In this document: positions 2,146 through 39,385 of the stretch, in pieces
Layout: every line of letters begins with the position of its first letter
Numbering within the stretch: position 1 is the first letter of the stretch
IMG/VR virus record: IMGVR_UViG_3300030104_004717
Span: 1-53,252 of that record
DNA length: 53,252 bases
Direction: 5' to 3' (one strand)
Source of the DNA: a virus
Lineage: Duplodnaviria; Caudoviricetes
Program-made: the position numbers and the translations under genes
The notes under the pieces: model-generated
Told to the model about the DNA's origin: nothing
Databases searched by the model: none
Seen by the model: the letters and a program-made list of their open reading frames with translations, nothing else

Positions 2146-3381
2146 ATGACTAAAAAATTAGACAACGAGCCTTTTGTTATAGATAGGCTCAAGATTGGCT
2201 CAACCAAATTTTCAATCTACAGTAATAACAAATCGTACACATTGGTTTGGTATGAAAACGGCAGGAGAATACGCAAGACTTTTAAGACGATAGACGAGGC
2301 CAAGAGGCAAGCTAGGACAGCCAAGGCTACAAAAAGCAATAACACTTTGAGTTTGTCTGGAAAGGAATTAAACGAATATAGGGCTACTTTAGACATACTT
2401 AATTCATACGCCAATATGTGTGATTTACCTGAAAGGCCACGCATCGACACTCTTATTCAAGAAGCTATTACTATCCGAAAACAAAAACCTGATAACTACA
2501 CAGTTAAAACGACCTCTGAAGTATTCGAGGAGCTGAAAGCTCAGAAGATTACTAATGGATGCACACGGCAAACCATACTAGACATGGGGTGTTTAAAAAG
2601 TTTTATCAATATGTATCCATCCTATATCCACGAAATATCCAATCAAGACGTTATTGAGTGGAACAATTTAATAGCAAAAGGAAAAGCCGAAAGGACACGG
2701 GCTAATTATCAGAACGCCCTAATAAATCTTTTTAACTACGCACAAAACATGGAATACTTGCCTGACGGTAAACATTCGGCTCACGTTTTAAAAAAAGCAG
2801 GATTGAAAGCGAAAAAAGGTGTAGCTGAAGTAAAGCTCTGGGGTATCAACGAATGGGAAAGGATAATTAATAAATCACTGGAACTAAAAAGCGTTGGAGA
2901 AAACAAAAGAGTTACTATAATGGTAGCGCTGGCAGGGTTAGCTGGTTTGCGAACGAGCGAGATAGCACGGATGGTGTGGAGCGATGTTTTATGGGATACT
3001 AAATATATTCGTGTTCCTGCACACAAATCTAAAAACAACAAAGCTCATCGGCGAATACCCTTATCCCCTTCTCTTGAAGCTTGGCTTAGATTAGCGGGAG
3101 GAGCGGAAGAATCAACAGGCTCTATGACTAAAGTTAAAGACAGAAGCTATGTAACTGAGAGGATAGTTCAAACAACTAAAAGGGCTGGCCTAGAGCATAT
3201 AAACAACGGCCTTCGCCATAGCTGTATATCAGCTTGGATTGCTCAAGGAAATGAAATAGGAACAGTTAGCAACTGGGCTGACAACTCGCCTGCTATAATT
3301 AGGTCTAACTATCTAGGTGAAATTACCCAAGAAGACGGCGAGCGATGGCATTCAATTATGCCACCTCGTAGATCGGATTGA
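2146..3381 (+). CDS. int: Tyrosine recombinase / phage integrase
   Basis: AGLRTSEI (catalytic Arg), SKN (Lys), NGLRHS (box with Arg) and NSPAIIRSNY (catalytic Tyr); N-terminal arm-binding-like region; adjacent to attP. Confidence 0.93.
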   Translation: MTKKLDNEPFVIDRLKIGSTKFSIYSNNKSYTLVWYENGRRIRKTFKTIDEAKRQARTAKATKSNNTLSLSGKELNEYRATLDILNSYANMCDLPERPRIDTLIQEAITIRKQKPDNYTVKTTSEVFEELKAQKITNGCTRQTILDMGCLKSFINMYPSYIHEISNQDVIEWNNLIAKGKAERTRANYQNALINLFNYAQNMEYLPDGKHSAHVLKKAGLKAKKGVAEVKLWGINEWERIINKSLELKSVGENKRVTIMVALAGLAGLRTSEIARMVWSDVLWDTKYIRVPAHKSKNNKAHRRIPLSPSLEAWLRLAGGAEESTGSMTKVKDRSYVTERIVQTTKRAGLEHINNGLRHSCISAWIAQGNEIGTVSNWADNSPAIIRSNYLGEITQEDGERWHSIMPPRRSD

Positions 3382-3965: not shown

Positions 3966-4233
3966 TATCTCCAGTGAACAAATGAGAGCTTGGCGAAGCG
4001 AGCTTCACAAGTCGTTAGATCAGTCTACCTTCTATTATAGACTCGTAATTGTTTGCTTGGCCGCCTGTATTGGAACCGTGGCATTTGGTTTAGTTTTCCC
4101 AACTATCTTTTTCGTGTTCATGGGACTGGTTTTTATGATTTTTCAAATGAAGCATTCTTGTCGAGCGCAAGAGATTGACTTGTTGCGAACGAAAGCAGTT
4201 AACAATTTTTTGATGAATAAAATTGATGGATGA
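3955..4233 (+). CDS. Hypothetical membrane protein
   Basis: Long hydrophobic stretch LVIVCLAACIGTVAFGLVFPTIFFVFMGLVFMIF; overlaps both neighbours as in an operon. Confidence 0.6.
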   Translation: MPDSISSEQMRAWRSELHKSLDQSTFYYRLVIVCLAACIGTVAFGLVFPTIFFVFMGLVFMIFQMKHSCRAQEIDLLRTKAVNNFLMNKIDG

Positions 4234-4630
4234 AGCGCTGAGGAAAGTTCTTAAAAAAGTTCCCAAGAAAAAAAACAAGTATGGTGCTAAAAAAGCAGGA
4301 TCCCTTTTGTTCGAGGGACGGATGTTTGACTCTAAGGCTGAAAGAGATAGAGCTGAACAGCTTAAGGTTATGGAGAGGGATGGCGATATACAGGAGCTAG
4401 AACTCCAGCCACAAACCTCACTTTCGAAAGCAGAGATTGGGTACAAGCCAGACTTCGCTTACACGGAAAATGGGGTGCGCATTTATGAAGACGTAAAGGG
4501 GGTTGAAACTGAAGGCTTTAGAATAAAGGCGAGACTCTGGAAGAAGTATGGATATGGGCCATTAAGAATAACAAAAAGAAAGGGAATAAAATCTCCCTTC
4601 ACTATCTCAAAAACTATTTATGTGGATTAA
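4223..4630 (+). CDS. DUF1064-like PD-(D/E)XK nuclease (putative junction resolvase)
   Basis: NKYGAKK, FDSKAE, LELQP, YKPDFAY and EDVKG motifs are characteristic of DUF1064. Confidence 0.85.
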   Translation: MMDEALRKVLKKVPKKKNKYGAKKAGSLLFEGRMFDSKAERDRAEQLKVMERDGDIQELELQPQTSLSKAEIGYKPDFAYTENGVRIYEDVKGVETEGFRIKARLWKKYGYGPLRITKRKGIKSPFTISKTIYVD

Positions 4631-5312
4631 AGTAGAAACGAAATTACGCAACAGTCCGAAAGTGTTCACGATTGCCATGAGAATGGGAGTGCCAAGGATT
4701 ACAGCCCTCGGAGCAGTGATTGAGGCGTGGATGATCGCTGATTCTCACGCTGAGGAAAATGGGTTCCTCAAACACCTCACTTTTGAGGCTCTTGATGAGA
4801 TGGTTGGGGTAAAATATCTTGGCACAGCAATGAATGAGGTTGGCTGGCTGGTTGAGGTTGAGGGAGGATTAAGTTTTGTGGATTACACAAAACATAACGG
4901 CTCGACTGCTAAAACAAGGGCTGAAGATGCAGAAAGACAAAGGAAGTGCCGGGAAAATAAGAAGGCAAAACAGGATGAGGAAAACAAGAATAAGGAAAGT
5001 GTGACACCTGTCACGGTTGTGTCACAAAATTCCGTGACCAGAGAAGAGAAAAGAAGAATAGATAATATATATAATGCCTATCCGAGAAAGGTCGGGAAGG
5101 CAGATGCTTTGAAGGCGATTGGTAAATCGCTGAAGAAAGAAGAGTATGAGTTTCTTTTAAAGAAAACTAAAGACTTTGCTCTGAGCAGACAGGCCGAGGA
5201 TCCTCAATTCACCCCCTACCCCTCAACTTGGTTCAACAGAGAGCATTACCACGATGAAATTGAGAAGGTTAAACCTAAACCCACTGGTGAAAACTTTATG
5301 GCAAAACTATAA
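4620..5312 (+). CDS. Phage replication initiator / replisome organiser
   Basis: N-terminal WIKVE, central AERQRKCR, C-terminal YPRKVGK...PYPSTWFN..HY.DE domain; directly upstream of the helicase; contains iteron-like repeats. Confidence 0.8.
   Translation: MWIKVETKLRNSPKVFTIAMRMGVPRITALGAVIEAWMIADSHAEENGFLKHLTFEALDEMVGVKYLGTAMNEVGWLVEVEGGLSFVDYTKHNGSTAKTRAEDAERQRKCRENKKAKQDEENKNKESVTPVTVVSQNSVTREEKRRIDNIYNAYPRKVGKADALKAIGKSLKKEEYEFLLKKTKDFALSRQAEDPQFTPYPSTWFNREHYHDEIEKVKPKPTGENFMAKL
5001..5075. promoter_or_regulatory. Putative replication origin inside the initiator gene
   Basis: Four GTGAC/GTCAC units within 5001-5040, followed by a purine run and an AT-rich tract (to about 5075); lambda O-like layout. 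Confidence 0.55.
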
Positions 5313-6652
5313 TGATTGAAGAACAAGTAGATACAAAAGATGAAGCTCTAAAACAGGCGGAGCTTAAGGTGATTGGATGTTTTGCGGCAGACTCCACCTA
5401 CGGTAAAAGGACAGGGGAAGAAGCCGTTGCCAAGGCAATGAACTACATCCCGAACGGCAGTTATTTCTCAAACACTTTCAGGTCATTGCTCTGGGATTTA
5501 ATTATTGAGTTAGTAGAGGATGGCTCCCCTCTTAGCTTATCTTCTCTGGCAATTAAGTTAGCAGAAAAGGAAGACAAAATTCCTTCACACATTTGGTCTG
5601 AAGTTATGGACGCTACGGATGACTGTGAGGAATCAGCAGACCACATTGAGTTCTATGCTAAACAGGTGGCTGATAAGTATTTTCACAGGATAACTCACCA
5701 ACAACTCCACCAGCTAACGGAAGGGGTTAGTAAGGGATCGGTTGATATTGATCAGCTAGAGGAAGGGATATTATCACTTAAAGAACTAAAGAATCACCAT
5801 TCTGATAAATCAAAAAACATAGGAACCGTTTTAAATGAACTGCTCCATCAGCAAATGGAGAACCACAAGAACCCAGGCATTCGAGGAGCAAGAACTGGAT
5901 TTGATAAACTGGATTCGAATCTTGGAGGTTTACAAAAGCAAGCGTTCATCGTGGTTGGCGCTCGGCCGTCAGCAGGAAAAACAGCCTTAGCTTGTAATTT
6001 GATGTCTGGTCTTGCCAAGCGAGGACACCGTTCCCTTTTCATCTCCCTTGAAATGACAAGCATTCAAGTCAGTACACGACTCGTAGCCGAAGCCTCAAAA
6101 ACAAGCTATCAGATATCCAGTTTTGAAAAACAGCCGAATGCGACTGAACACGCCAGAATCAACAACGCCATGAAAAATCTTAAAGAATGGCCGTTAGAAA
6201 TTTATGATCCCCCCACCCAAACTATTTCACAAGTTTGCTCAAAGATTAGAGAAGCTGGGAGGCAAGGTGTTGAGGTTGTTATGATTGACTACGTTGGTTT
6301 GATTCGACCTGAATCAAAAGAGCAAAGACAATCTCGTTATCTACTTATCACCGAATGTTCAGCAAAATTAAAAGCGGCGGCTAGAGCAGCAAATGTAGCC
6401 GTTATCTGCTTGTGCCAACTTAGACGAGAAGCCGAAAAGAATGACAAGCCAAAGATGAGTGATCTGAGAGAGTCAGGACAGCTTGAACAGGATGCCGATG
6501 CTATCATTTTGATTCATAGACCTGAAAGAGAACAAGACATTGTGATGGAGGATGGGTTTTTACTCGTATCAAAAAACAGAAACGGCCCGACAGGAGACGT
6601 AGATATCGTCTTCAATCGCCGCACCATGACATTTTCAGAAGGGATAATTTAA
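5312..6652 (+). CDS. dnaB: Replicative DNA helicase, DnaB family
   Basis: Walker A GARPSAGKT, SLEM, IDYVGLI, CQLRR, DLRESGQLEQDAD and KNRNGPTG. Confidence 0.96.
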   Translation: MIEEQVDTKDEALKQAELKVIGCFAADSTYGKRTGEEAVAKAMNYIPNGSYFSNTFRSLLWDLIIELVEDGSPLSLSSLAIKLAEKEDKIPSHIWSEVMDATDDCEESADHIEFYAKQVADKYFHRITHQQLHQLTEGVSKGSVDIDQLEEGILSLKELKNHHSDKSKNIGTVLNELLHQQMENHKNPGIRGARTGFDKLDSNLGGLQKQAFIVVGARPSAGKTALACNLMSGLAKRGHRSLFISLEMTSIQVSTRLVAEASKTSYQISSFEKQPNATEHARINNAMKNLKEWPLEIYDPPTQTISQVCSKIREAGRQGVEVVMIDYVGLIRPESKEQRQSRYLLITECSAKLKAAARAANVAVICLCQLRREAEKNDKPKMSDLRESGQLEQDADAIILIHRPEREQDIVMEDGFLLVSKNRNGPTGDVDIVFNRRTMTFSEGII

Positions 6653-6894
6653 TGACACTTGATGAGTTTGCAGAAATAAACCCCGAAGCGATCCAAGCTG
6701 ACGGTTGGGATGAAGCTTTTATTGGATATGTCGAAAGGGCAGATCAGTTACCAACTGCTTGCTACAGCAAGGAAAAGATTATTGAGTTATCCAAGCGTGA
6801 TGGCATAAGCGAAGAGCAAGCGCTCGAATACTTTGAATATAATATTGTCAGCGCCTATGTCGGCGAGTTCACCCCTTTTTATTTAACGGTATGA
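6652..6894 (+). CDS. Conserved hypothetical phage protein
   Basis: ADGWDEAFIG...EQALEYFEYNIVSAYVGEFTP pattern, which I recall from aquatic phages; translationally coupled. Confidence 0.7.
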   Translation: MTLDEFAEINPEAIQADGWDEAFIGYVERADQLPTACYSKEKIIELSKRDGISEEQALEYFEYNIVSAYVGEFTPFYLTV

Positions 6895-7364
6895 GTGAAA
6901 TAATTATCAGACTTAACCAAGCCGAAAAAGAAATTTGTGCAAAGATTGGAATGCGCAGGCAGTTAACCAACAGGGCTATCGGAACAGTAAACCAAAAGGT
7001 ACATACTAAAGATTCTTTTGAAGTAGATCGAGACGGTTTTGCAGGAGAGATGGCCTTTTGTAAAATCTTCCGAATCTATCCAGACTTTGAAAACAACCGA
7101 GCCGATGCCGATGCTTATCATCCAGAACTCAAATGGGTAGATGTGAAGACGGCTCCTGAGAGCCACCACAACCTATTGGTACGCCAACCCAAAGCTGATC
7201 ACCCAGCCGACACATACGCTCTCGTTATCGGAAAATGGGAGACAGGAGTGTTCAGCTACGTTGGCTATGCTACAAAAGAGATGGTCTTTAGGGATGATAA
7301 TCTCGTAGATCCCGGTTTTGGGGTTTGCCACATGATTAAAAGAAAGGATTTAATTTTGCCATGA
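6891..7364 (+). CDS. Hypothetical protein, possible restriction-endonuclease fold
   Basis: GFAGEMAF...D...VDVKT arrangement resembles PD-(D/E)XK; ATGA overlaps at both ends. Confidence 0.55.
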   Translation: MSEIIIRLNQAEKEICAKIGMRRQLTNRAIGTVNQKVHTKDSFEVDRDGFAGEMAFCKIFRIYPDFENNRADADAYHPELKWVDVKTAPESHHNLLVRQPKADHPADTYALVIGKWETGVFSYVGYATKEMVFRDDNLVDPGFGVCHMIKRKDLILP

Positions 7365-7891
7365 CCAATACACACATCATGCTCGACATTGAAACTTTAG
7401 GAACTAGTCCTAAGTCAGTTATCTTTGCAGTAGGGGCTGTAAAAATAAAAGACAATAAGATAGCTGGAAGTTTTTTGGGATACCCATCGATTGAGTCATG
7501 CTTAGATTTAGGACTCACTATTGAAGCAGACACGCTCAAGTGGTGGATGACTCAAAGTGACGATGCTCGCAAGCAATTCAGTGAAAAGACAGGCAAATTA
7601 AAAGAGATACTGAGCGATTTTAACTACTGGTGCGGCACTTCAAACGATCTATACCTCTGGGGAAACGGTGCTGACTTTGATAATGTTCACCTCGCTGAGG
7701 CTTACAAGGCGTGTAAGATGAATCAACCGTGGAAGTTCTGGAATAGTAGGTGTTTCAGAACAATCAAAGGGCTGTACCCAGACACTATCTCACCTTTAAA
7801 GGTCGGAACTAAACACAATGCTCTGAATGATGCTTTAGCTCAAGCGCACCACCTTATCCAAATATTTAAAGACAATGGACTACCCTACTGA
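7361..7891 (+). CDS. DEDDh 3'-5' exonuclease (Rv2179c/DUF5051-like)
   Basis: MLDIETLG (Exo I), WGNGADFD (Exo II) and HNALNDA (Exo III). Confidence 0.88.
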   Translation: MTNTHIMLDIETLGTSPKSVIFAVGAVKIKDNKIAGSFLGYPSIESCLDLGLTIEADTLKWWMTQSDDARKQFSEKTGKLKEILSDFNYWCGTSNDLYLWGNGADFDNVHLAEAYKACKMNQPWKFWNSRCFRTIKGLYPDTISPLKVGTKHNALNDALAQAHHLIQIFKDNGLPY

Positions 7892-7955
7892 TCCTATTCC
7901 TATCTGGATGCTGTTCCTTCTAATAGGAATTATCTTATTTCTAATTTTCTTTTAG
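7875..7955 (+). CDS. 26-aa single-TM micropeptide (MDYPTDPIPIWMLFLLIGIILFLIFF), not in the ORF track
   Basis: ATG 7875 to TAG 7955; overlaps the exonuclease 3' end and ends just before the next promoter. Confidence 0.45.
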   Translation: MDYPTDPIPIWMLFLLIGIILFLIFF

Positions 7956-8002
7956 TTAGTCTACCTTTATTGGTTGACTCATGTTCTACAATGTGTCATT
8001 AG
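7956..8002 (+). promoter_or_regulatory. Promoter/operator heading the small-ORF array
   Basis: TTAGTCTA-N10-TTGACTCA; TTGACT as -35 at 7974 with a weak -10 17 nt downstream. Confidence 0.65.
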
Positions 8003-8027
8003 TTATTTATTAACTCAAAAAACTAAC

Positions 8028-8243
8028 ATGACACTATATACATTATCTTACACACTCCACGGAAACGAAGACGAGCTTTACTACTTGCCTACAAAAAAAG
8101 CAGCGTTGGAATACTTAAAAGAAGAAAAAGAGCGCCACGGCAAAACCAATATTACTGATGCAAGTATCAGCTCTTTTGATTTTAAACTTACAAAAAAAGA
8201 CATTGCCAGTCTTTTGAACAGCGAAGTAGGCACAGGCTTTTAA
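8028..8243 (+). CDS. Hypothetical protein, array ORF 1 (start corrected from 7974)
   Basis: ATG at 8028 ends the conserved leader TAACTCA6CTAACATG shared with three other genes. Confidence 0.75.
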   Translation: MTLYTLSYTLHGNEDELYYLPTKKAALEYLKEEKERHGKTNITDASISSFDFKLTKKDIASLLNSEVGTGF

Positions 8244-8244
8244 T

Positions 8245-8304
8245 TCGAAACTCCCTTAAGGGGAGTCATCAGCCTTTAGCAAGTTGATCTGACGAGATAG
8301 CTAA
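8245..8304 (+). ncRNA. Hammerhead ribozyme, type II, with loop I/3'-tail pseudoknot
   Basis: GAAA 8247-50; stem III CTCCC/GGGAG; GUC triplet 8265-67; stem I ATCAGC/GTTGAT; CTGACGA 8289-95; stem II TC/GA; pseudoknot TTAGC 8276-80 with GCTAA 8300-04. Confidence 0.92.
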
Positions 8305-8322
8305 TAACTCAAAAAAACTAAC

Positions 8323-8748
8323 ATGGTAACATTAAAAACATTAAACAAAGCATTTGCCAGCTTAGGCATAGAACTTGTATGGGGTAACTCATGCGGAAGC
8401 GGAAGGTACTTTTACTTCATTATCTCAGACATCAAGCAGTGTCCTCTGCAATTCTGTAAGGGTGAGATTTTTGGTAACGACCATCAACTCGAAGAGTCAT
8501 GGGGCTATGGATTCCCATTAAATCACATCACTCCTACAGGGTGGATGGAAGAGGCCGTAAGCCAACTGATTAGCGTTGCAGAGCACTGGGACAGAGGTAA
8601 TCACAAGTTCACCAACTGGGAAAAAACAGCCATGAGAATGGTACTCCACGACAAGTTGTCTAAGAACTACAAAGTTGCTGAGACTTACAAGCACCCTAAG
8701 CCAGAATCAGTCAACTGGAACCATCACGTTGTAAAGGAGGAGGCATAA
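8323..8748 (+). CDS. Hypothetical protein, array ORF 2
   Basis: Conserved leader before the ATG; ends in the conserved GGAGGAGGCATAA junction. Confidence 0.75.
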   Translation: MVTLKTLNKAFASLGIELVWGNSCGSGRYFYFIISDIKQCPLQFCKGEIFGNDHQLEESWGYGFPLNHITPTGWMEEAVSQLISVAEHWDRGNHKFTNWEKTAMRMVLHDKLSKNYKVAETYKHPKPESVNWNHHVVKEEA

Positions 8749-8749
8749 G

Positions 8750-9217
8750 ATGGATATTTGCAGAAGAGACAAAATAGAAAAAATCAGTAGCGACAAACTT
8801 CAAGCGCAACTCAAAATACAATATGAAAATTTTGAGGATACACCTAATCAATCACGCATTGAGTTTTTGGAAACGCTCATCAATAACTACAACAAAGAAC
8901 TTAGAGCATTGAGGCAGGATATAAGAGGCTGGGTTTTAGATACACAAATCGACAGCCTTTTTAAAAACAAGAAGGTTTTAGACGAGCCTTCTTTTTCAGG
9001 ACCAGAGGACTACTGGTATCTTGAGAATTACGAGGACTATCTCATAAGCAGAGCAACGTGGCACATCAATAACGGAGGACCAATGAATAATAATTTCAAG
9101 TATGATGCTTTTGTCATAGGCATAGATAGAATTCACGATGATGGAAGCCGAGAACATCTTTCAACTTTAACAGTTGGAGATATGTGGGATGAACCTAACT
9201 GGGAAAGGGGCGCATAA
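8750..9217 (+). CDS. Hypothetical protein, array ORF 3
   Basis: GCATAAGATG junctions at both ends; N-terminal coiled-coil-like segment. Confidence 0.75.
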   Translation: MDICRRDKIEKISSDKLQAQLKIQYENFEDTPNQSRIEFLETLINNYNKELRALRQDIRGWVLDTQIDSLFKNKKVLDEPSFSGPEDYWYLENYEDYLISRATWHINNGGPMNNNFKYDAFVIGIDRIHDDGSREHLSTLTVGDMWDEPNWERGA

Positions 9218-9218
9218 G

Positions 9219-9611
9219 ATGAAGATCGACAAACTAGGATTTATCAGAGACGAAAAGGGGTGCTATGTGTTTCAGGACATTGGAGTGTTTCACTCTCCAG
9301 TGAATACAGTCAGCGATCCCCAAACCCTCTTTACAGAACTCCCTACGAGCAGGGAAATTATGGCACGGGTCAAGGAGGTTAACCCTACAAACCCTAAGAA
9401 ATTTTGTAGGCGTGATTTATGCAACCTAACAAGCAGGAAGGTTCTCAACACCACCAAAGGGACTATCGACTTAGGCAGTATGCCTCTCGAATTTGCCGAC
9501 TGGACATGGGATGAGGATGTTAAGCCGTACCTTCAAAAAGGTAGCCAGATCGAAGAGAAATGGATGAGCTTTAAAGTTCACGCTCGTTGGACAGTAAGGG
9601 AGGGCGCATAA
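9219..9611 (+). CDS. Hypothetical protein, array ORF 4 (start corrected from 9174)
   Basis: ATG at 9219 lies in the conserved GCATAAGATG junction. Confidence 0.75.
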   Translation: MKIDKLGFIRDEKGCYVFQDIGVFHSPVNTVSDPQTLFTELPTSREIMARVKEVNPTNPKKFCRRDLCNLTSRKVLNTTKGTIDLGSMPLEFADWTWDEDVKPYLQKGSQIEEKWMSFKVHARWTVREGA

Positions 9612-9612
9612 G

Positions 9613-9903
9613 ATGGGAAAAATAACATATACAAAAAGGGATCTTTGGTTGGCTTATAAAACCTATCTTCAGGCAAGTCCTAGATCAAAAACGATCCACG
9701 TAACAATCGAGATGGAGGTAGATAGAAACGAATTTGTTGCATCACGATTAGTTGGAGAAAGCTTTAATCAAGAAGACTTTGAAAAAGCAGAGCCGCTTTT
9801 TGAGCCAGAATACACTGAACACGTAAGTTCATTAGTGTGGACTGAAGTGGTAGAGAAACTATCTGACCTGCACGGGTCAATAACAATAAAGGAGGAGGCA
9901 TAA
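9613..9903 (+). CDS. Hypothetical protein, array ORF 5
   Basis: GCATAAGATG junctions at both ends. Confidence 0.75.
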   Translation: MGKITYTKRDLWLAYKTYLQASPRSKTIHVTIEMEVDRNEFVASRLVGESFNQEDFEKAEPLFEPEYTEHVSSLVWTEVVEKLSDLHGSITIKEEA

Positions 9904-9904
9904 G

Positions 9905-10342
9905 ATGGATACACCAGAAGAGTTTCTAGAAGTAGTTAAAAAAAGTTATCCGAAAGCTGAGAGAATCTATCTATCAGCTTTTAGGTGGGGTGCTCCAACC
10001 GACAAACATAACCCTACTGCTGGCAAAGATATAATTACCAAAAGTACCCTGATGGATGTAGATGGTAATATAAAAAAGTTTACATGGCTAAACACTTGTT
10101 TCACATGGTTCCCTTATGAAAAAAGCACAGAGCAAACCCTACAGGAAATGTTTGGAGAGGACATGGAAATTTCTATGCCTTTACTGTCCTACCTATACAA
10201 GCATGGGGTAACCAGAATCCGTATTTTGGTAGAGGGTGACGGTCAAGAGTTGGCAAGAATGGCAAGCTACGGTCTTAGTGAGTTTGGCTTCTATTTCAAA
10301 GGCTGTACTCCACAACAACGTAGCGGGCTGATGGCTCTTTAA
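9905..10342 (+). CDS. Hypothetical protein, array ORF 6
   Basis: Preceded by AAAGGAGGAGGCATAAGATG. Confidence 0.75.
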   Translation: MDTPEEFLEVVKKSYPKAERIYLSAFRWGAPTDKHNPTAGKDIITKSTLMDVDGNIKKFTWLNTCFTWFPYEKSTEQTLQEMFGEDMEISMPLLSYLYKHGVTRIRILVEGDGQELARMASYGLSEFGFYFKGCTPQQRSGLMAL

Positions 10343-10352
10343 AAAAACTTAG

Positions 10353-10400
10353 TGGGTCTACCTTTTAATTGTTGACTCATGTGTCAGTTTGTTTCATATT
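10353..10400 (+). promoter_or_regulatory. Second promoter/operator of the array
   Basis: TGGGTCTA-N11-TTGACTCA; -35 TTGACT at 10372, 17-nt spacer, -10 CATATT at 10395. Confidence 0.7.
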
Positions 10401-10432
10401 AATACCAACTTAAATAACTCAAAAAAACTAAC

Positions 10433-10771
10433 ATGGCTAAAACAACTTCTTTTCCTTCCTTATTTCCAACCTTTATGTTCGGCTTCGGTCAGAAGCTAAA
10501 GCTCGATTATCAGTACGATATTGAGATGGACGAATGGATTGGTTTTCCTATCTTCGATTCACTTGATGATGACGAGGCATGGATGGACGACCCTCGCTGG
10601 GATATTCCTAGGAAAGAGCTTCGTCTTATCACACAGACATACAACGAAGCAGGCAAATGGGATTCAGAAGTGTTAAACCCAGACAGAGCATTGGCTGACC
10701 TTAAAACCAATCTCCAGCACTTCCATAATTTTGGATGGGGGTCAGAAGGCAAAGATAAGTGGAGCGCATAA
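10433..10771 (+). CDS. Hypothetical acidic protein, array ORF 7
   Basis: Conserved leader; ends in GCGCATAA. Confidence 0.75.
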   Translation: MAKTTSFPSLFPTFMFGFGQKLKLDYQYDIEMDEWIGFPIFDSLDDDEAWMDDPRWDIPRKELRLITQTYNEAGKWDSEVLNPDRALADLKTNLQHFHNFGWGSEGKDKWSA

Positions 10772-10795
10772 TTTAAATAACTCAAAAAAACTAAC

Positions 10796-11191
10796 ATGAA
10801 AAAAACCACACCTTCCCAATACGCTATAGATAGACAATATCAGATCGCAGATGCTTGGCGCTTCAGAAATGGCAAGTTTAAAGACTACACACTCGAAGAG
10901 TGGAGACAGAAGAAAAAAAACAAGAATCCTGCTGTTGCCTCTTCCCACCTTGCTTGGGTTATTACACAATGGAACGATGAATTTTTCGACAGAGAATTTG
11001 GATTCGATAGAGTCTACGGCAAAGATCTGTTGCTCAAAAAAATTGCCCTCGTTATGAAATATGAAGGCAAGTGGCATCACATGACAAAATTTAAGGAGCC
11101 GTGGGATCTTATTGAGGCTCTTGAGGACTTTGCTTCAGGTATGCAGACAATGGCTAATTTTATGATTAATAACCCAAGGAGGGTCGCATAA
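10796..11191 (+). CDS. Hypothetical protein, array ORF 8
   Basis: 26-nt leader identical to that of ORF 7; ends in AGGAGGGTCGCATAA. Confidence 0.75.
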   Translation: MKKTTPSQYAIDRQYQIADAWRFRNGKFKDYTLEEWRQKKKNKNPAVASSHLAWVITQWNDEFFDREFGFDRVYGKDLLLKKIALVMKYEGKWHHMTKFKEPWDLIEALEDFASGMQTMANFMINNPRRVA

Positions 11192-11192
11192 C

Positions 11193-11963
11193 ATGGATAC
11201 AGCACAAAATCTTCACCCTTTCGAGAAGTCAGGCATGGGCATAGGCCCATTTGAGTTCGTTGGCAGTATACTTTTACCGTCATCTACATTTGCAGAGCAT
11301 AACCCCAGTGCTTACCAAGCAAGCCTAAAGGAAGCGCACGGCGAAGCCAGCAGGCACGGAGTCAGGTTAGGCAGTTGCAATCACTGCGGTACTGGTCTTA
11401 TGCACCACTGCATTATTAAAGATTCTAATGATGTTAGATTTGTAGTCGGTAATATCTGCGTCCAAAAGACTGGTGACGGTTACCTTGGAGATAAAACTAA
11501 GGTAGCCGCTAGAAAAATGGCGGCTGAGGTCAAAGAGCTTAATAAACAGATCAAGCATGAGCAGTGGCTCGCATCTCCCTCTAAGGAAAATCCTGAGTTG
11601 AGCAATGAGCAGTTGGCTGAAGTCAAAAGACAGGAACGTGAAGCTCGTTACAGGCGTGAGGCAATACTTTCTCGTGAGAGGTTTGTAGCTACTTACTCAA
11701 AAGCCTGTGAAACTTGGGGATTTTACTTTGATAAAGTTTGGGGTACTACAGACCTTAAAAAGCTAGAGAAAATTTTAGATGACGCTTATCAGGGCTTTAC
11801 CGTTAGCGTCACTCAACAGATGATGAGAGGTGAAAGTCTCTCTTGGAAACAGTGGGACATCTGCGCTGACATCTATGCTAAAACAGCAGGTCGCAGTAAC
11901 AGCAGAGCCTATGGCGATGCATACGATGAATTTTCTAACCAAGTTATCCACCTTCGTGACTAG
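11193..11963 (+). CDS. Hypothetical protein with putative Zn-binding CxxC...H...C region, array ORF 9
   Basis: CNHCGTGLMHH...VGNICV; preceded by a GCATAACATG junction. Confidence 0.75.
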   Translation: MDTAQNLHPFEKSGMGIGPFEFVGSILLPSSTFAEHNPSAYQASLKEAHGEASRHGVRLGSCNHCGTGLMHHCIIKDSNDVRFVVGNICVQKTGDGYLGDKTKVAARKMAAEVKELNKQIKHEQWLASPSKENPELSNEQLAEVKRQEREARYRREAILSRERFVATYSKACETWGFYFDKVWGTTDLKKLEKILDDAYQGFTVSVTQQMMRGESLSWKQWDICADIYAKTAGRSNSRAYGDAYDEFSNQVIHLRD

Positions 11964-12131
11964 GTGAGCCAACATTTAAAGATTGATATGACATTTGAAG
12001 AATACGCAGAAATGAACGAATACACTCACAAGGGTGGAGGATTTTACGAGGACGCTGGCGGAGGCATCGTTTACGAGGACAGCATCATTGAGGAGATGGA
12101 AGCAGAGTACCCCGAATCAAAAGATAATTAA
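11964..12131 (+). CDS. Small very acidic protein (55 aa; GTG 11964 or ATG 11988), not in the ORF track
   Basis: Open frame abutting both neighbours: VSQHLKIDMTFEEYAEMNEYTHKGGGFYEDAGGGIVYEDSIIEEMEAEYPESKDN. Confidence 0.6.
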   Translation: MSQHLKIDMTFEEYAEMNEYTHKGGGFYEDAGGGIVYEDSIIEEMEAEYPESKDN

Positions 12132-12132
12132 T

Positions 12133-12348
12133 ATGGAAACACCAAAAACATTATACGTTAAAGCCAAGGCTGGCAGACTCCACGCAGAGGAGATACTTAA
12201 AGCTCTTGAGAGAACCAGAGAAAAGCTGGAGGACAGCATGAATGAAGTTGATGATCGAATCAAAGACGTTGTCAATGAGCGTAAAGACTTTGAAGCAATG
12301 GAAGAAAGGCTTTTAAAGAAGGTTATACCACAGCCTTGGCACGGATAA
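12133..12348 (+). CDS. Small coiled-coil protein (start corrected from 12034)
   Basis: ATG 1 nt after the upstream stop; heptad pattern LERTREKLEDSMNEVDDRIKDV. Confidence 0.65.
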   Translation: METPKTLYVKAKAGRLHAEEILKALERTREKLEDSMNEVDDRIKDVVNERKDFEAMEERLLKKVIPQPWHG

Positions 12349-12349
12349 A

Positions 12350-13495
12350 ATGATAGCCAATTCAAAGATCATGTTAGGTGATTGCAGGACTGAGCTAGAC
12401 CTATTGGAGGAAGGGTCGGTTCAGTCTTGCATAACTTCCCCACCCTATTGGGGACTTCGAGACTATGGTACAGCCACTTGGATTGGAGGTGATTCTAATT
12501 GCTCTCATCAGAGAGACTCAAAACTTAAACCAGAGAACACATTAACAGGTCATAAAAATTTAGAAAAAATGAATGGCGTTGGTGATTCCATTTATAAAAC
12601 AGAATGCCCTAAGTGCGGTGCCATCCGTAAAGATGATCAGCTTGGGCTGGAATCCACCCCAGAAGAATATGTTGCCAGCATGGTGGATGTATTCAGAGCC
12701 GTTAAAAGGGTCTTAAAGGACGATGGAACGCTTTGGCTTAATCTTGGCGACACTTACTGCGGAGCAGGACACAAAGACGATGGCAAGGATCCTAAGCACA
12801 AAGAAGGTAGAAACTGGGACGGACACAAAGCCCCTAACAACAAGGTTGAAGGACTAAAGCCAAAAGACCTTATCGGTATTCCTTGGAGGGTTGCCTTTGC
12901 GTTGCAGGCAGATGGCTGGTATTTGAGGCAGGACATCATCTGGCACAAACCGAATCCGATGCCAGAACCAGTCAAGGATCGCTGTACTAAATCACACGAG
13001 TATATATTTCTGATGAGCAAGTCTGCGAAGTATTATTATAATAATGACGCTATTAAGGAGAGGTGCGAGGAGTCAAACATTGAAGATTACAAGCGCCGCA
13101 ATACTTTTGACAATAAAGGCACAGGGAAAGGAAGTTACGAGGAGGCTCGTCCCGATCTTTGCAGGGGGCGGGAAGCTTATATGCCTGACGACTTTATGCG
13201 TAACAAGCGTGATGTATGGACGGTTAACACACAGCCCTACAAAGATGCTCACTTTGCTACCTTCCCAACTAAACTCATTGAACCTTGCGTATTAGCTGGA
13301 TCACAGGTAGGAGACACCGTACTTGACCCATTTGCAGGCTCAGGAACTACAGGTCTAGTCTCAGTAGAAAACGGCAGGAATTTTGTAGGAGTAGAACTTA
13401 ACTCAGACTACAAAAAGCTGGCAGAGCAGAGAATAAATACAGCGCAACCATCGCTTTTTAATTATACATCAACCACAAAAACACTAACATTATAA
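12350..13495 (+). CDS. DNA methyltransferase, N4-C/N6-A beta class (orphan)
   Basis: Catalytic TSPPY near the N-terminus, DIIWHKPNPMP, HFATFP, and SAM-binding LDPFAGSGTT near the C-terminus. Confidence 0.95.
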   Translation: MIANSKIMLGDCRTELDLLEEGSVQSCITSPPYWGLRDYGTATWIGGDSNCSHQRDSKLKPENTLTGHKNLEKMNGVGDSIYKTECPKCGAIRKDDQLGLESTPEEYVASMVDVFRAVKRVLKDDGTLWLNLGDTYCGAGHKDDGKDPKHKEGRNWDGHKAPNNKVEGLKPKDLIGIPWRVAFALQADGWYLRQDIIWHKPNPMPEPVKDRCTKSHEYIFLMSKSAKYYYNNDAIKERCEESNIEDYKRRNTFDNKGTGKGSYEEARPDLCRGREAYMPDDFMRNKRDVWTVNTQPYKDAHFATFPTKLIEPCVLAGSQVGDTVLDPFAGSGTTGLVSVENGRNFVGVELNSDYKKLAEQRINTAQPSLFNYTSTTKTLTL

Positions 13496-13737: not shown

Positions 13738-13824
13738 AAGGATTTACTCTATCTTAAACGGCTTTGGGATAGAGTGAAATTGCTGTAATAACAGCATTAT
13801 TGTTATATTGCACACATAACTACC

Positions 13825-38314: not shown

Positions 38315-38653
38315 CTAAAAGGGAATGTCATCCCCCTGAAGATCCTCCGCCGTGGCGGATATAGTTGAGGTCATAGGGCGCTGAGATGCCTGAGAACCTG
38401 AAAAGTTCTGCTGGCTTCCACTGTCACTATTTTTTTGCTGTGACCCTGCAACATCTGCATTGCCCACAAAAGGCATTTTGGTTCCAGAATCCCTTTCCTC
38501 TTTTGTTGACTTCTGTACTATTCCCCAAGTCCCGAAGTCAGAACTAGGTGTTGGAATTAGAACAAGGTCACAATAGGTTCCCTTTTTGCCCTTGAAGAAT
38601 CGATCCTTATCAAGTTTCGAAACATCTACCTTAACATTTATCATCTCTGCCAT
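38315..38653 (-). CDS. ssb: Single-stranded DNA-binding protein (phage type)
   Basis: C-terminal DDIPF tail after a Ser/Gln-rich linker; follows the Rad52-like annealase. Confidence 0.75.
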   Translation of the reverse strand: MAEMINVKVDVSKLDKDRFFKGKKGTYCDLVLIPTPSSDFGTWGIVQKSTKEERDSGTKMPFVGNADVAGSQQKNSDSGSQQNFSGSQASQRPMTSTISATAEDLQGDDIPF

Positions 38654-38731: not shown

Positions 38732-39385
38732 TCAAGCCGCCTTATTGGCCTCCTGAGAAATTTCTTTAGCCATCTGGCCTACCAAGTGCCAGAGTTTAAA
38801 TTTGTCATCGTTTAAAGAATGACTCATCACTCTGTTCCGCCATTCAATAATCTGATCCCTCTCTGTTGGACCTAGTTCAATTAGAGGCTTGCCTTTTAAG
38901 GTTGAAGCCTTCTTCCATTCGCCTAATTCATATTTAGGGACTGGCCTGTCCTCCTTCGCATATTCCTGATCCAAATAAGGGTCATCAACCCCCTTACCTT
39001 GATAGACAGAAAGACCGACTCCCATAAAGCTAGAGGCTTTAGAAATAAGATTAGTTTGTGCCTTTTTCATCCCCTCAGCCACGTTGCCTTTAAAGACACG
39101 AGCGTCACCAATAGCAGGGATTTGACAGCGTTGACCTTTGTACATATACCAAAGGTGGCCTACAGCTGCGATGTTATCATCTTCATGTCGGAATTCATCG
39201 ACCTGTACACCCCATCCATAACCACACAAGCCAAACTCTTGAATGAGTCGTGGAATAATGTGATAAGCGTCAATGACGGTCATCGTTCTACCTCCGAGCT
39301 TAAGGTTTTTATAAGCGGTTTTAGGGAACGGGCGAGAGAGCCTTATAAATAGTTCATTCTCGTCTTTTTCTTTTTTTGAGTCCAT
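38732..39385 (-). CDS. Rad52/Sak-family single-strand annealing protein
   Basis: LSRPFP, IDAYHIIPRLIQEFGLCGYGWG and KKAQTNLISKASSFMGVGLSVY match the Rad52/22 pattern; adjacent to ssb. Confidence 0.8.
   Translation of the reverse strand: MDSKKEKDENELFIRLSRPFPKTAYKNLKLGGRTMTVIDAYHIIPRLIQEFGLCGYGWGVQVDEFRHEDDNIAAVGHLWYMYKGQRCQIPAIGDARVFKGNVAEGMKKAQTNLISKASSFMGVGLSVYQGKGVDDPYLDQEYAKEDRPVPKYELGEWKKASTLKGKPLIELGPTERDQIIEWRNRVMSHSLNDDKFKLWHLVGQMAKEISQEANKAA

Follow-up and report, generated by a model that had tools for sequence, protein, structure and literature searches.

Two families of repeated start-codon junctions bound a variable array of small genes in a temperate-type tailed phage

Work by Martinsohn et al. 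in 2008 reportedly ascribed the mosaicism of temperate (lambdoid) phages to relaxed homologous recombination, while Susskind and Botstein, as well as Juhala in 2000 and Clark in 2001, are said to have proposed that conserved linker or boundary sequences mark the gene borders of lambdoid phages. Four papers supply further precedents. They describe shuffling at repeated regulatory motifs, the promoter-early stem-loops (PeSLs), of T4-type phages (Arbiol et al. 2010, PMC2839356; Comeau et al. 2014, PMC4122927), with physical demonstration of the PeSL mini-circles (PMC2839356), the formation of mosaics in temperate phages by Rad52-like phage recombinases (De Paepe et al. 2014, PMC3945230), and hammerhead ribozymes that flank single genes or short blocks in prophages, where the flanked genes “are not constant” (Perreault et al. 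2011, PMC3088659). The present analysis concerns positions 7956-11963, on the plus strand, of a complete IMG/VR virus record of 53,252 nucleotides (nt), IMGVR_UViG_3300030104_004717, referred to below as the window. Here nine small open reading frames (ORFs), g1 to g9, are joined by two families of near-identical junctions, A and B, and related phages probably shuffle these genes by exchange guided by homology or microhomology at the junctions, rather than by random joining followed by selection.

Junction A (TAACTC-A6/7-CTAAC-ATG) ends in the start codons of g1, g2, g7 and g8, and junction B, a purine-rich Shine-Dalgarno (SD) sequence followed by GCA, TAA, one G or C and ATG, ends in those of g3, g4, g5, g6 and g9 (Table 1). 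The core of junction A, AACTAACATG, occurs four times in the 53,252 nt (8021, 8316, 10426 and 10789), each copy ending in the ATG of a gene, against a mean of 0.14 in shuffled windows. The core of junction B, GCATAA[G/C]ATG, occurs five times (8743, 9212, 9606, 9898 and 11186), always at an array gene start, against a shuffled mean of 0.27. None of 100 shuffles reached either count, and neither core is found in the window outside the array. In the longer form of junction A, the run is A6 in the copy at 8011 and A7 in those at 8305, 10415 and 10778; the copies at 10410-10435 and 10773-10798 are identical over 26 nt (repeat family D1), and two B copies, 8732-8756 and 9887-9911, match at 100% over 25 nt (repeat family D2). 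No pair among the nine ORFs gave a blastp match below an E-value of 0.05. An earlier note on this DNA had described both junction families, the two long identities and the unrelatedness of the ORFs, and these descriptions hold.

The two families end alike, in a 7-nt core (TAA-[C/G]-ATG) present in all 38 junction rows tabulated from six genomes; the spacer is 1 nt throughout and no row carries a gene remnant or an irregular spacer. Junction A is an SD-less, A-rich leader of ~20 nt with stop codons in three frames, and two copies of it bracket each of the g1-hammerhead unit, g7 and U1, a gene of one relative. Ahead of its ATG, junction B is made of the coding end of the preceding gene (…KEEA, …REGA, …ERGA or …RRVA before the stop codon) and moves with that gene, such that the g2 tail is unchanged before g3 in the window and before g4 in the related locus L007. 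The 53 gene starts listed for this genome were read by eye; outside the array nearly all are without an SD, they are A-rich, and coupled genes display TAATG overlaps. By the same reading a clear GGAGG-type SD lies outside the B junctions at one start alone (44584), and junction B therefore appears specific to the array rather than the genome’s general start signal, while junction A resembles the general A-rich, SD-less style.

Relatives were recovered using as baits g4, g9 and the two proteins encoded directly before the array, a DUF5843 protein (o157) and a DnaQ-type exonuclease (exo). Beside the phage of the window (W; L096 is its equal at 100%), seven further distinct arrays were found, named by their loci as L007 (also L088, L101 and L225), L008 (L087, L102 and L224), L006 (L005, L097, L226 and L227), L004, L099, L100 and L223. 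With HH for the hammerhead, P1 and P2 for the promoter regions, and X1, Z, U1-U3 and V175 for genes in the relatives, W reads P1·A·g1·HH·A·g2·B·g3·B·g4·B·g5·B·g6·P2·A·g7·A·g8·B·g9 and L007 reads P1·A·g1·HH·A·X1·B·g2·B·g4·B·g6·P2·A·g7·A·g9, with L008 the same as L007 except for A·Z·B·g9. L004 is P1·A·g2·B·g3·B·g6·P2·A·g8·B·g9, L099 is the same with an 86-amino-acid (aa) gene between g8 and g9, and L100 is P1·A·g4·A·g2·B·g6·P2·A followed by an extra N-terminal part fused to g9; L006 and L223 read P1·A·U1·A·g5'·U2·U3 and P1·A-like·V175·B·g4·B·U2…, respectively.

All eight distinct arrays differ in content or order. In a gene matrix over five relatives, g1-g8 occupy 18 of 40 cells, and the flanking genes, o157 and exo upstream and g10, g11, DUF3846 and o203 downstream, are present in all five; the flanks remain syntenic. 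Order varies too, g4 standing before g2 in L100 and after it in L007, and g4 has four upstream neighbours (g3, g2, P1 and V175) and five downstream ones (g5, g6, g2, U2 and a new gene in sequencing run X7). No match to g7 was found in L004, L099, L100, L006 or L223, and bait scans with g3 and g5 gave no relatives beyond those already known. Alignments of homologous array genes begin at residue 1 or 2 in nearly all cases. A tblastn screen of 223 loci (L103 upward), which left out weak partial DnaB or methyltransferase matches in five other loci, placed array genes only in records of the known relatives L007, L008, L006 and L223, while blastn of 7900-12000 against a phage GenBank collection returned zero matches.

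Breakpoints between these arrays can be mapped precisely in several comparisons. A single 262-nt indel separates L004 from L099, which agree at 99.8% to either side of it. The indel comprises exactly the 86-aa gene and its tail, starting at the ATG of that gene and stopping one base short of the next ATG, and an exact direct repeat of 11 nt from the junction B core lies at its two ends. Between L007 and L008 (96-98% identity) the difference is gene Z, a 445-nt indel with 7-9-nt direct repeats, TAACATG[A/G]A, at its ends; both indels are presumed gains or losses of one gene. The second codon of g9 in L007 is chimeric, with a first base from the Z copy and the remainder from that of g9, which is what a crossover immediately behind the ATG would give. 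L223, whose exo is just 61% identical to that of W at the aa level, has no blastn match to the window besides g4, of which 384 of 393 nt (97.7%) are identical. The identity begins 5 nt before the ATG, spans the next junction and ends 2-3 nt past the next ATG, with flanks at chance level (29/95 and 28/100 nt matching), and g4 of L223 thus bears the signature of a single gene that was transferred recently, with a B core at either end. Run X7 comes from a different study; in its near-identical Logan contigs, the three loose ends inside the array all lie at junction ATGs (8325, 9615 and 11189). One contig departs from the window right after 8325 into the start of X1, another right after 9615 into a gene found nowhere else in this set, and a third enters at 11189 from an A-type leader. 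Each of the nine breakpoints that could be mapped precisely is at most 9 nt from a start codon, a condition that 4.3% of the array satisfies (naive P ~5e-13, ignoring selection). As the earlier note had anticipated, related phages differ in content and order and the breakpoints fall inside the junctions (eight arrays, the indel pairs, L223 and X7); neither a shared gene order nor array breakpoints away from the junctions were seen.

Identity between W and L007 changes stepwise at gene borders. At the nt level it is 0.72 in o157, 0.70 in exo, 0.96 in g1, 0.96 in the hammerhead spacer, 0.88 in g2, 0.80 in g4, 0.975 in g6, 0.87 in P2, 0.83 in g7 and 0.755 in g9. The replication-side genes of W are nearer those of L099 and L006 (o157 87-91% aa) than those of L007 (76%), and g1, g2 and g6 are nearest L007. 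Copies of junction A are more alike within a genome (0.82, 17 pairs) than between genomes (0.65, 88 pairs; L008 excluded), both copies in L099 reading CTTAAAATAAC and three in W having the A7 run, which fits exchange or duplication among the copies. A larger mosaic boundary was also observed near P1, where 6891-8027 is closest to L099, L100 and L006, and g1, g2 and g6 (in 8028-10342) are closest to L007 and L008.

Guided exchange at the junctions is favoured because direct repeats lie at the scars, one joint is chimeric, the 38 junction rows are scar-free and the A copies are homogenised. In the corresponding model, 7956-11963 would be a hyperplastic early-gene region of a marine temperate phage in which each gene is a plug-compatible cassette. 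P1 and P2, acting as repressor-controlled promoters of the sigma-70 type, would drive two operons. Junction A would serve any gene that comes first behind a promoter or the hammerhead, or that a gap separates from the gene before it, while in tightly packed genes junction B would be a termination-reinitiation coupler, with the SD in the last codons, an Ala codon, TAA, one base and ATG. Near-identical linkers stand in fixed register to the start codons of unrelated genes, with 7-26 nt of identity, and a crossover there would therefore remove, add, replace or reorder a whole gene and leave its neighbours correctly expressed. The partners could be copies in one genome, co-infecting relatives or prophages. 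The likeliest agents would be annealing by a Rad52-fold protein, or copy-choice or slippage during replication, with selection retaining the in-register products.

Several observations weigh against guided exchange. Exact identity in the cores at the mapped breakpoints extends over only 7-11 nt, and B junctions are not homogenised within genomes (0.59 within against 0.585 between). A B-like string, GAGGNNGCATAAGATG, is present in at least 120 unrelated viral contigs, nearly always as a single copy, and so is not diagnostic; of the two junction strings that had been suggested as keys for searching metagenomes, the exact A string found only the L007 and L008 contigs and the unrelated L085 (single copy, no shared genes), and its degenerate form matched 103 stretches, of which 80 were listed. 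The P value is inflated, as selection for intact, expressed genes would by itself gather surviving breakpoints at gene borders. An existing cassette difference could also be moved by ordinary crossovers in the long homologous flanking genes, and a junction event is therefore required only for the origin of each new adjacency. The methyltransferase after the array, for which no homologue was found in L100, L006 or L223, is mosaic within the gene, with seven loose ends and one replaced 168-nt stretch; in contigs of other runs 12463-12630 gives way to 12 other letters and branches occur at 12719, 12752, 13201, 13240 and 13303, a pattern that may reflect swapping of the target-recognition region. 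In L100, a 364-aa ORF (5427-6521) fuses an upstream 108-aa cassette in frame to g9 at about residue 5, the KEE-type tail continuing directly into g9 with the stop-start junction missing, which looks like a junction deletion that made a fusion protein. Lastly, Logan contigs of runs X3, X4, X6 and X7 contain no deletion or circle joints between junction copies (8732/9887 and 10410/10773), a result that is uninformative either way as assemblies omit rare variants; stretches left uncovered in X4, X6 and X7 carry no weight either.

Several of these points would be accommodated if the junctions were optimised signals for translation initiation and coupling, alike by convergence, and the arrays arose by illegitimate recombination at random sites followed by selection, an explanation that is considered unlikely. 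Junction B does have textbook geometry, with GGAGG ~6 nt before the ATG and the stop codon 1 nt before the start, and its presence as single strings in at least 120 unrelated contigs indicates that it is also the general look of a good SD-stop-start. It is, however, not the optimum of this genome, where a clear GGAGG SD is used at one start outside the array and TAATG overlaps are used elsewhere. Phage L089, a distant relative (g9 homologue 42% aa) with a linker context unlike A or B, carries in 4800-10000 its own repeated start context, ...GAAAGGACAGAACA[A/T][A/C]ATG, before at least seven consecutive small genes, and stereotyped linkers may therefore be a wider habit, as this explanation would have it. 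The co-variation of B tails with the upstream gene agrees with it as well, and selection alone would also pile up surviving joints at gene borders. Yet it leaves unexplained that all 38 junction rows hold the same register without scars, that direct repeats of the core flank the indels of two near-isogenic pairs with one joint chimeric, that A copies are homogenised within genomes, and that the 25-26-nt identities reach the first codons of unrelated genes, beyond what initiation needs.

It is very improbable that a dedicated site-specific or nuclease-driven cassette system, integron-like or driven by a homing endonuclease, recognises the junctions. The architecture is cassette-like with precise boundaries and the phage encodes a tyrosine integrase, but this lies 4.6 kb upstream beside an att-like core derived from a tRNA, and Pfam and PHROGs placed none of the array ORFs in a nuclease or recombinase family. 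In 7900-12000, inverted repeats of ≥12 nt (within 150 nt) are absent and nothing is attC-like, and A and B differ in sequence except for the 7-nt core; joints of 7-26 nt of plain identity thus point to general rather than site-specific recombination. Least probable of all is an assembly artefact, with chimeric contigs joined at repeated junctions, for although every sequence used is a metagenome assembly, in which repeats are known to produce misjoins, the arrangements recur in independent records (L007 = L101 at 99.9%, L008 = L102 at 100%, L005 = L006 = L097, W = L096), the exact repeats are ≤26 nt, and the variants differ in diverged coding sequence as well as in adjacency.

Table 1. Features of the array and of the remainder of the window.
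Feature	Position	Strand	Remark
P1, operator-like half-sites and promoter	7956-8010	+	-35 TTGACT 7974-7979; 17-nt spacer; -10 CATTAG 7997-8002
Junction A, copy 1	8011-8030	+	A6 run; SD-less leader of g1
g1	8028-8243	+	71 aa; ORFan; in L007 and L008 at 94% aa
Candidate type II hammerhead	8243-8306	+	between g1 and g2
Junction A, copy 2	8305-8325	+	A7 run; leader of g2
g2	8323-8748	+	141 aa; four different upstream neighbours among relatives
Junction B, g2-g3	8732-8752	+	g2 tail, TAA, G, ATG
g3	8750-9217	+	155 aa; only in W, L004 and L099
Junction B, g3-g4	9205-9221	+	left end of g4 block shared with L223
g4	9219-9611	+	130 aa; apparently exchanged alone, recently
Junction B, g4-g5	9595-9615	+	right end of g4 block shared with L223
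g5	9613-9903	+	96 aa; only in W and L006 (49% aa)
Junction B, g5-g6	9887-9907	+	repeat D2
g6	9905-10342	+	145 aa; 97.5% nt identity to L007 (exo ~70%)
P2, operator-like motif and promoter	10353-10414	+	-35 TTGACT 10372-10377; 17-nt spacer; -10 CATATT 10395-10400
Junction A, copy 3	10415-10435	+	leader of g7
g7	10433-10771	+	112 aa; junction A on both sides
Junction A, copy 4	10778-10798	+	leader of g8
g8	10796-11191	+	131 aa; slot empty in L007; unrelated gene Z in L008
Junction B variant GCATAACATG, g8-g9	11175-11195	+	TAACATG in common with junction A
g9	11193-11963	+	256 aa; conserved anchor gene at 3' end of array; Cys/His cluster
Integrase (tyrosine, PHROG 1)	2146-3381		sole integrase in genome
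Holliday-junction resolvase, replication initiator and DnaB helicase	4223-6652		
DUF5843 protein (o157) and DnaQ-type exonuclease (exo)	6891-7891		directly before array
DNA methyltransferase	12350-13495		after array
Tail, portal, terminase and capsid genes and a 5,246-aa ORF			after methyltransferase
Rad52-fold single-strand annealing protein	38732-39385	-	217 aa; candidate recombinase

The array had been proposed to be divided by two matching promoter/operator regions with a ribozyme at one junction. The two regions do match, 7952-7999 and 10349-10397 being similar (88% over 17 nt, D19; 74% over 34 nt, D8). A promoter scan lists P2 (TTGACT-17-CATATT) and not P1 (TTGACT-17-CATTAG). P1 is kept upstream of the array in L004, L007, L008, L099 and L100. 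An operator-like palindrome, GAGTCWAC-N8-GTWGACTC, has seven copies with ≤3 mismatches between 1806 and 49718, against a shuffled mean of 0.45, with sites that include 1991, 4021, 7957 and 46818. The match in P1 (7957-7980) has one mismatch and its right half doubles as the -35 element, while the motif at 1991-2014 lies, with the tRNA-derived att-like core, near the integrase. From the ends of the -10 elements, at 8002 and 10400, transcripts would start approximately at junction A, which would then form about the whole 5' untranslated region; the first plus-strand terminator-like site past the array is at 13781.

The hammerhead candidate matches the full Rfam model RF02276 (Hammerhead_II) at 31.7 bits (E 2.9e-5 in a 106-nt search), below the gathering threshold of 37, and Rfam scans of the whole window and of 4.2 kb reported no hammerhead at the gathering threshold or at E≤10. 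It holds the core nucleotides CGAAAC, GUC and CUGAnGA, its stem II has 2 base pairs (bp), and its loop I (UUAGC) could form base pairs with GCUAA in the 3' tail. Such a short stem II and such a loop I/3'-tail pseudoknot are typical features of type II hammerheads (PMC3088659). The candidate is 96% conserved in L007 and L008, with no informative covariation, and it is probably genuine, with cleavage predicted. It behaves as part of a g1 cassette (g1, hammerhead and junction A), because g1 has no match in L099, L100, L006 or L223, and L004 and L099 go from P1 directly to g2. Two other Rfam matches, a weak one to RAGATH-12 inside g6 (10130-10210; 25.4 bits against a gathering threshold of 75, E 0.043 in the 4.2-kb search) and a CRISPR-repeat-like one (E 9.8), were treated as chance.

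That the phage encodes a Rad52/Sak annealase had also been claimed, and the claim gains support at the level of fold. Pfam Rad52, Sak, RecT and ERF families gave no match for the product of 38732-39385 or in the genome, the PF04098 and PF06378 profiles had no matches in the genome at E≤1, and phmmer and profile searches against PDB sequences returned nothing for this protein. It has 44 homologues, and 3 of 20 match PF04098 under threshold (best E 0.014); among its Atlas neighbours is a cluster with Rad52_Rad22 in 35% of the members. An AlphaFold2 model built from a 20-sequence alignment (predicted local distance difference test (pLDDT) score of 84.7) displays the β-β-β-α core of the Rad52 N-terminal fold and was matched by Foldseek to human RAD52 (8bjm_B, E 8.8e-8), yeast Mgm101 (9yi9_P, E 4.5e-6) and phage 80alpha Sak (8pq8, E 2.5e-3). 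The model thus supports a Rad52/Sak-type annealase with predicted annealing of single-stranded DNA, and by analogy with the recombinases of PMC3945230 this protein may carry out the shuffling. A nearby ORF (38315-38653), a candidate single-strand-binding protein, has no Pfam or PHROG match. One annealase homologue is labelled as coming from a Lentisphaeria metagenome-assembled genome, a lead to a host in the Planctomycetes-Verrucomicrobia-Chlamydiae (PVC) group.

The suggestion that the array carries anti-defence or host-takeover proteins found no backing and remains a guess, and any benefit of the cargo is presumptive. Pfam and PHROG searches covered ten array ORFs. None of the nine is above Pfam family thresholds, the one sub-threshold match being g8 to Lyx_isomer (E 0.0028; 17.3 against 20.8 bits), and only g2 matched PHROGs, with two weak families of unknown function. 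In a 7-sequence alignment of g9, C62, H64, C65, H71 and C89 are invariant, which suggests a small metal-binding module followed by long helices. The g9 model (pLDDT 79.8) has no PDB fold match at E≤0.001, and an Atlas search with g9 matched viral hypothetical clusters alone.

The gene content of the record (Table 1) is that of a temperate-type tailed phage. Metagenome runs labelled marine or seawater contain parts of the window. ARAGORN detected no tRNA gene, and a scan of genome contigs with the o157 alignment found no host or prophage relatives; the scarce use of SDs suggests a host that seldom uses them. Downstream of the array the order of g10 and g11 is reversed, W having g10 and g11 (11964-12348) and L007 (13698-14202) and L008 having a g11-like gene, a 44-aa ORF and g10. 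Before the first of these genes lies sequence like a P1/P2 promoter/operator motif in degenerate form, and L006 has a more intact version of this motif.

A wider synthesis is offered tentatively, as a possibility. In it, the linkers would be the maintained standard interface of an early-gene cassette pool shared within one clade of temperate marine phages, in effect an integrase-free integron, in which cassettes bring their own 3' adaptor (SD-Ala-TAA-N) or 5' leader, a Rad52-fold annealase captures and reshuffles them at cores of 7-26 nt, the hammerhead is an RNA-level insulator travelling with its cassette, and turnover follows an arms race with host defence. The locus bears on the question of whether phage mosaicism arises by recombination at short conserved linkers or by random illegitimate joining and selection. 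It offers a clean data set, with one gene per unit, two near-isogenic single-cassette pairs with direct repeats and a 97.7% identical gene between diverged flanks, and, with joints short enough to recode and a candidate recombinase identified, the question becomes directly testable. The architecture also flags fast-turnover early ORFans as reasonable candidates for functional screens, and the linkers, in which three-frame stops are combined with a start signal, are a natural counterpart to engineered modular expression cassettes.

Compared with known systems, the proposal of the earlier note that the array represents an undescribed system was overstated, as PeSLs (PMC2839356) and hammerhead-flanked variable prophage genes (PMC3088659) had already been described. 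A description of translation-signal junctions as recombination joints was not found in the open full-text literature, although subscription journals and supplements may hold some. Likenesses to integrons are an array of promoterless, unrelated small genes under a common upstream promoter and gene-wise gain, loss and reordering; unlike integrons, the array has no attC-like inverted repeats and no IntI/attI arrangement, replication genes lying between the integrase and the array. Hammerheads in prophages flank single genes or short blocks (PMC3088659), and the present type II candidate likewise stands between small, variable genes, g1 and g2, in a temperate phage, but it is a single one, below the gathering threshold and within one cassette. 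Lambdoid mosaicism shares with the array a temperate phage, a Rad52-type annealase, exchanges bounded by short similarity and new joints at gene borders. There, however, homology traces mostly to flanking genes over tens to hundreds of nt, whereas here a stereotyped pair of linkers stands at every border of a nine-gene array and the unit of exchange is a single gene.

The closest likeness is to PeSLs. Both systems have short repeated regulatory motifs between non-essential ORFan early genes, and the motif bears expression signals (including, in PeSLs, the SD and start codon), such that shuffled genes stay expressed; here too, the indels and replacements of close relatives map to the motifs in an ORFan-rich region. 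PeSLs comprise a promoter and a terminator stem-loop, about one per gene, in large virulent myoviruses, in contrast with the ~53-kb temperate type with a Rad52-fold annealase described here. Promoter-like sequence is present at two of the nine junctions (P1 and P2); at the other seven, 1 to ~25 nt separate the genes, too short for a -35 and a -10, and the inverted repeats expected of a stem-loop per motif number zero in 7900-12000. The joints instead look like translation signals, either a 20-nt SD-less leader or an SD-stop-start coupler that lies partly in the upstream coding sequence. The array therefore follows the logic of PeSLs but, as its motifs do not each carry a promoter and a stem-loop, falls outside the PeSL family; the concept of shuffling is already known, and the locus is an unusually clean, testable example of it.

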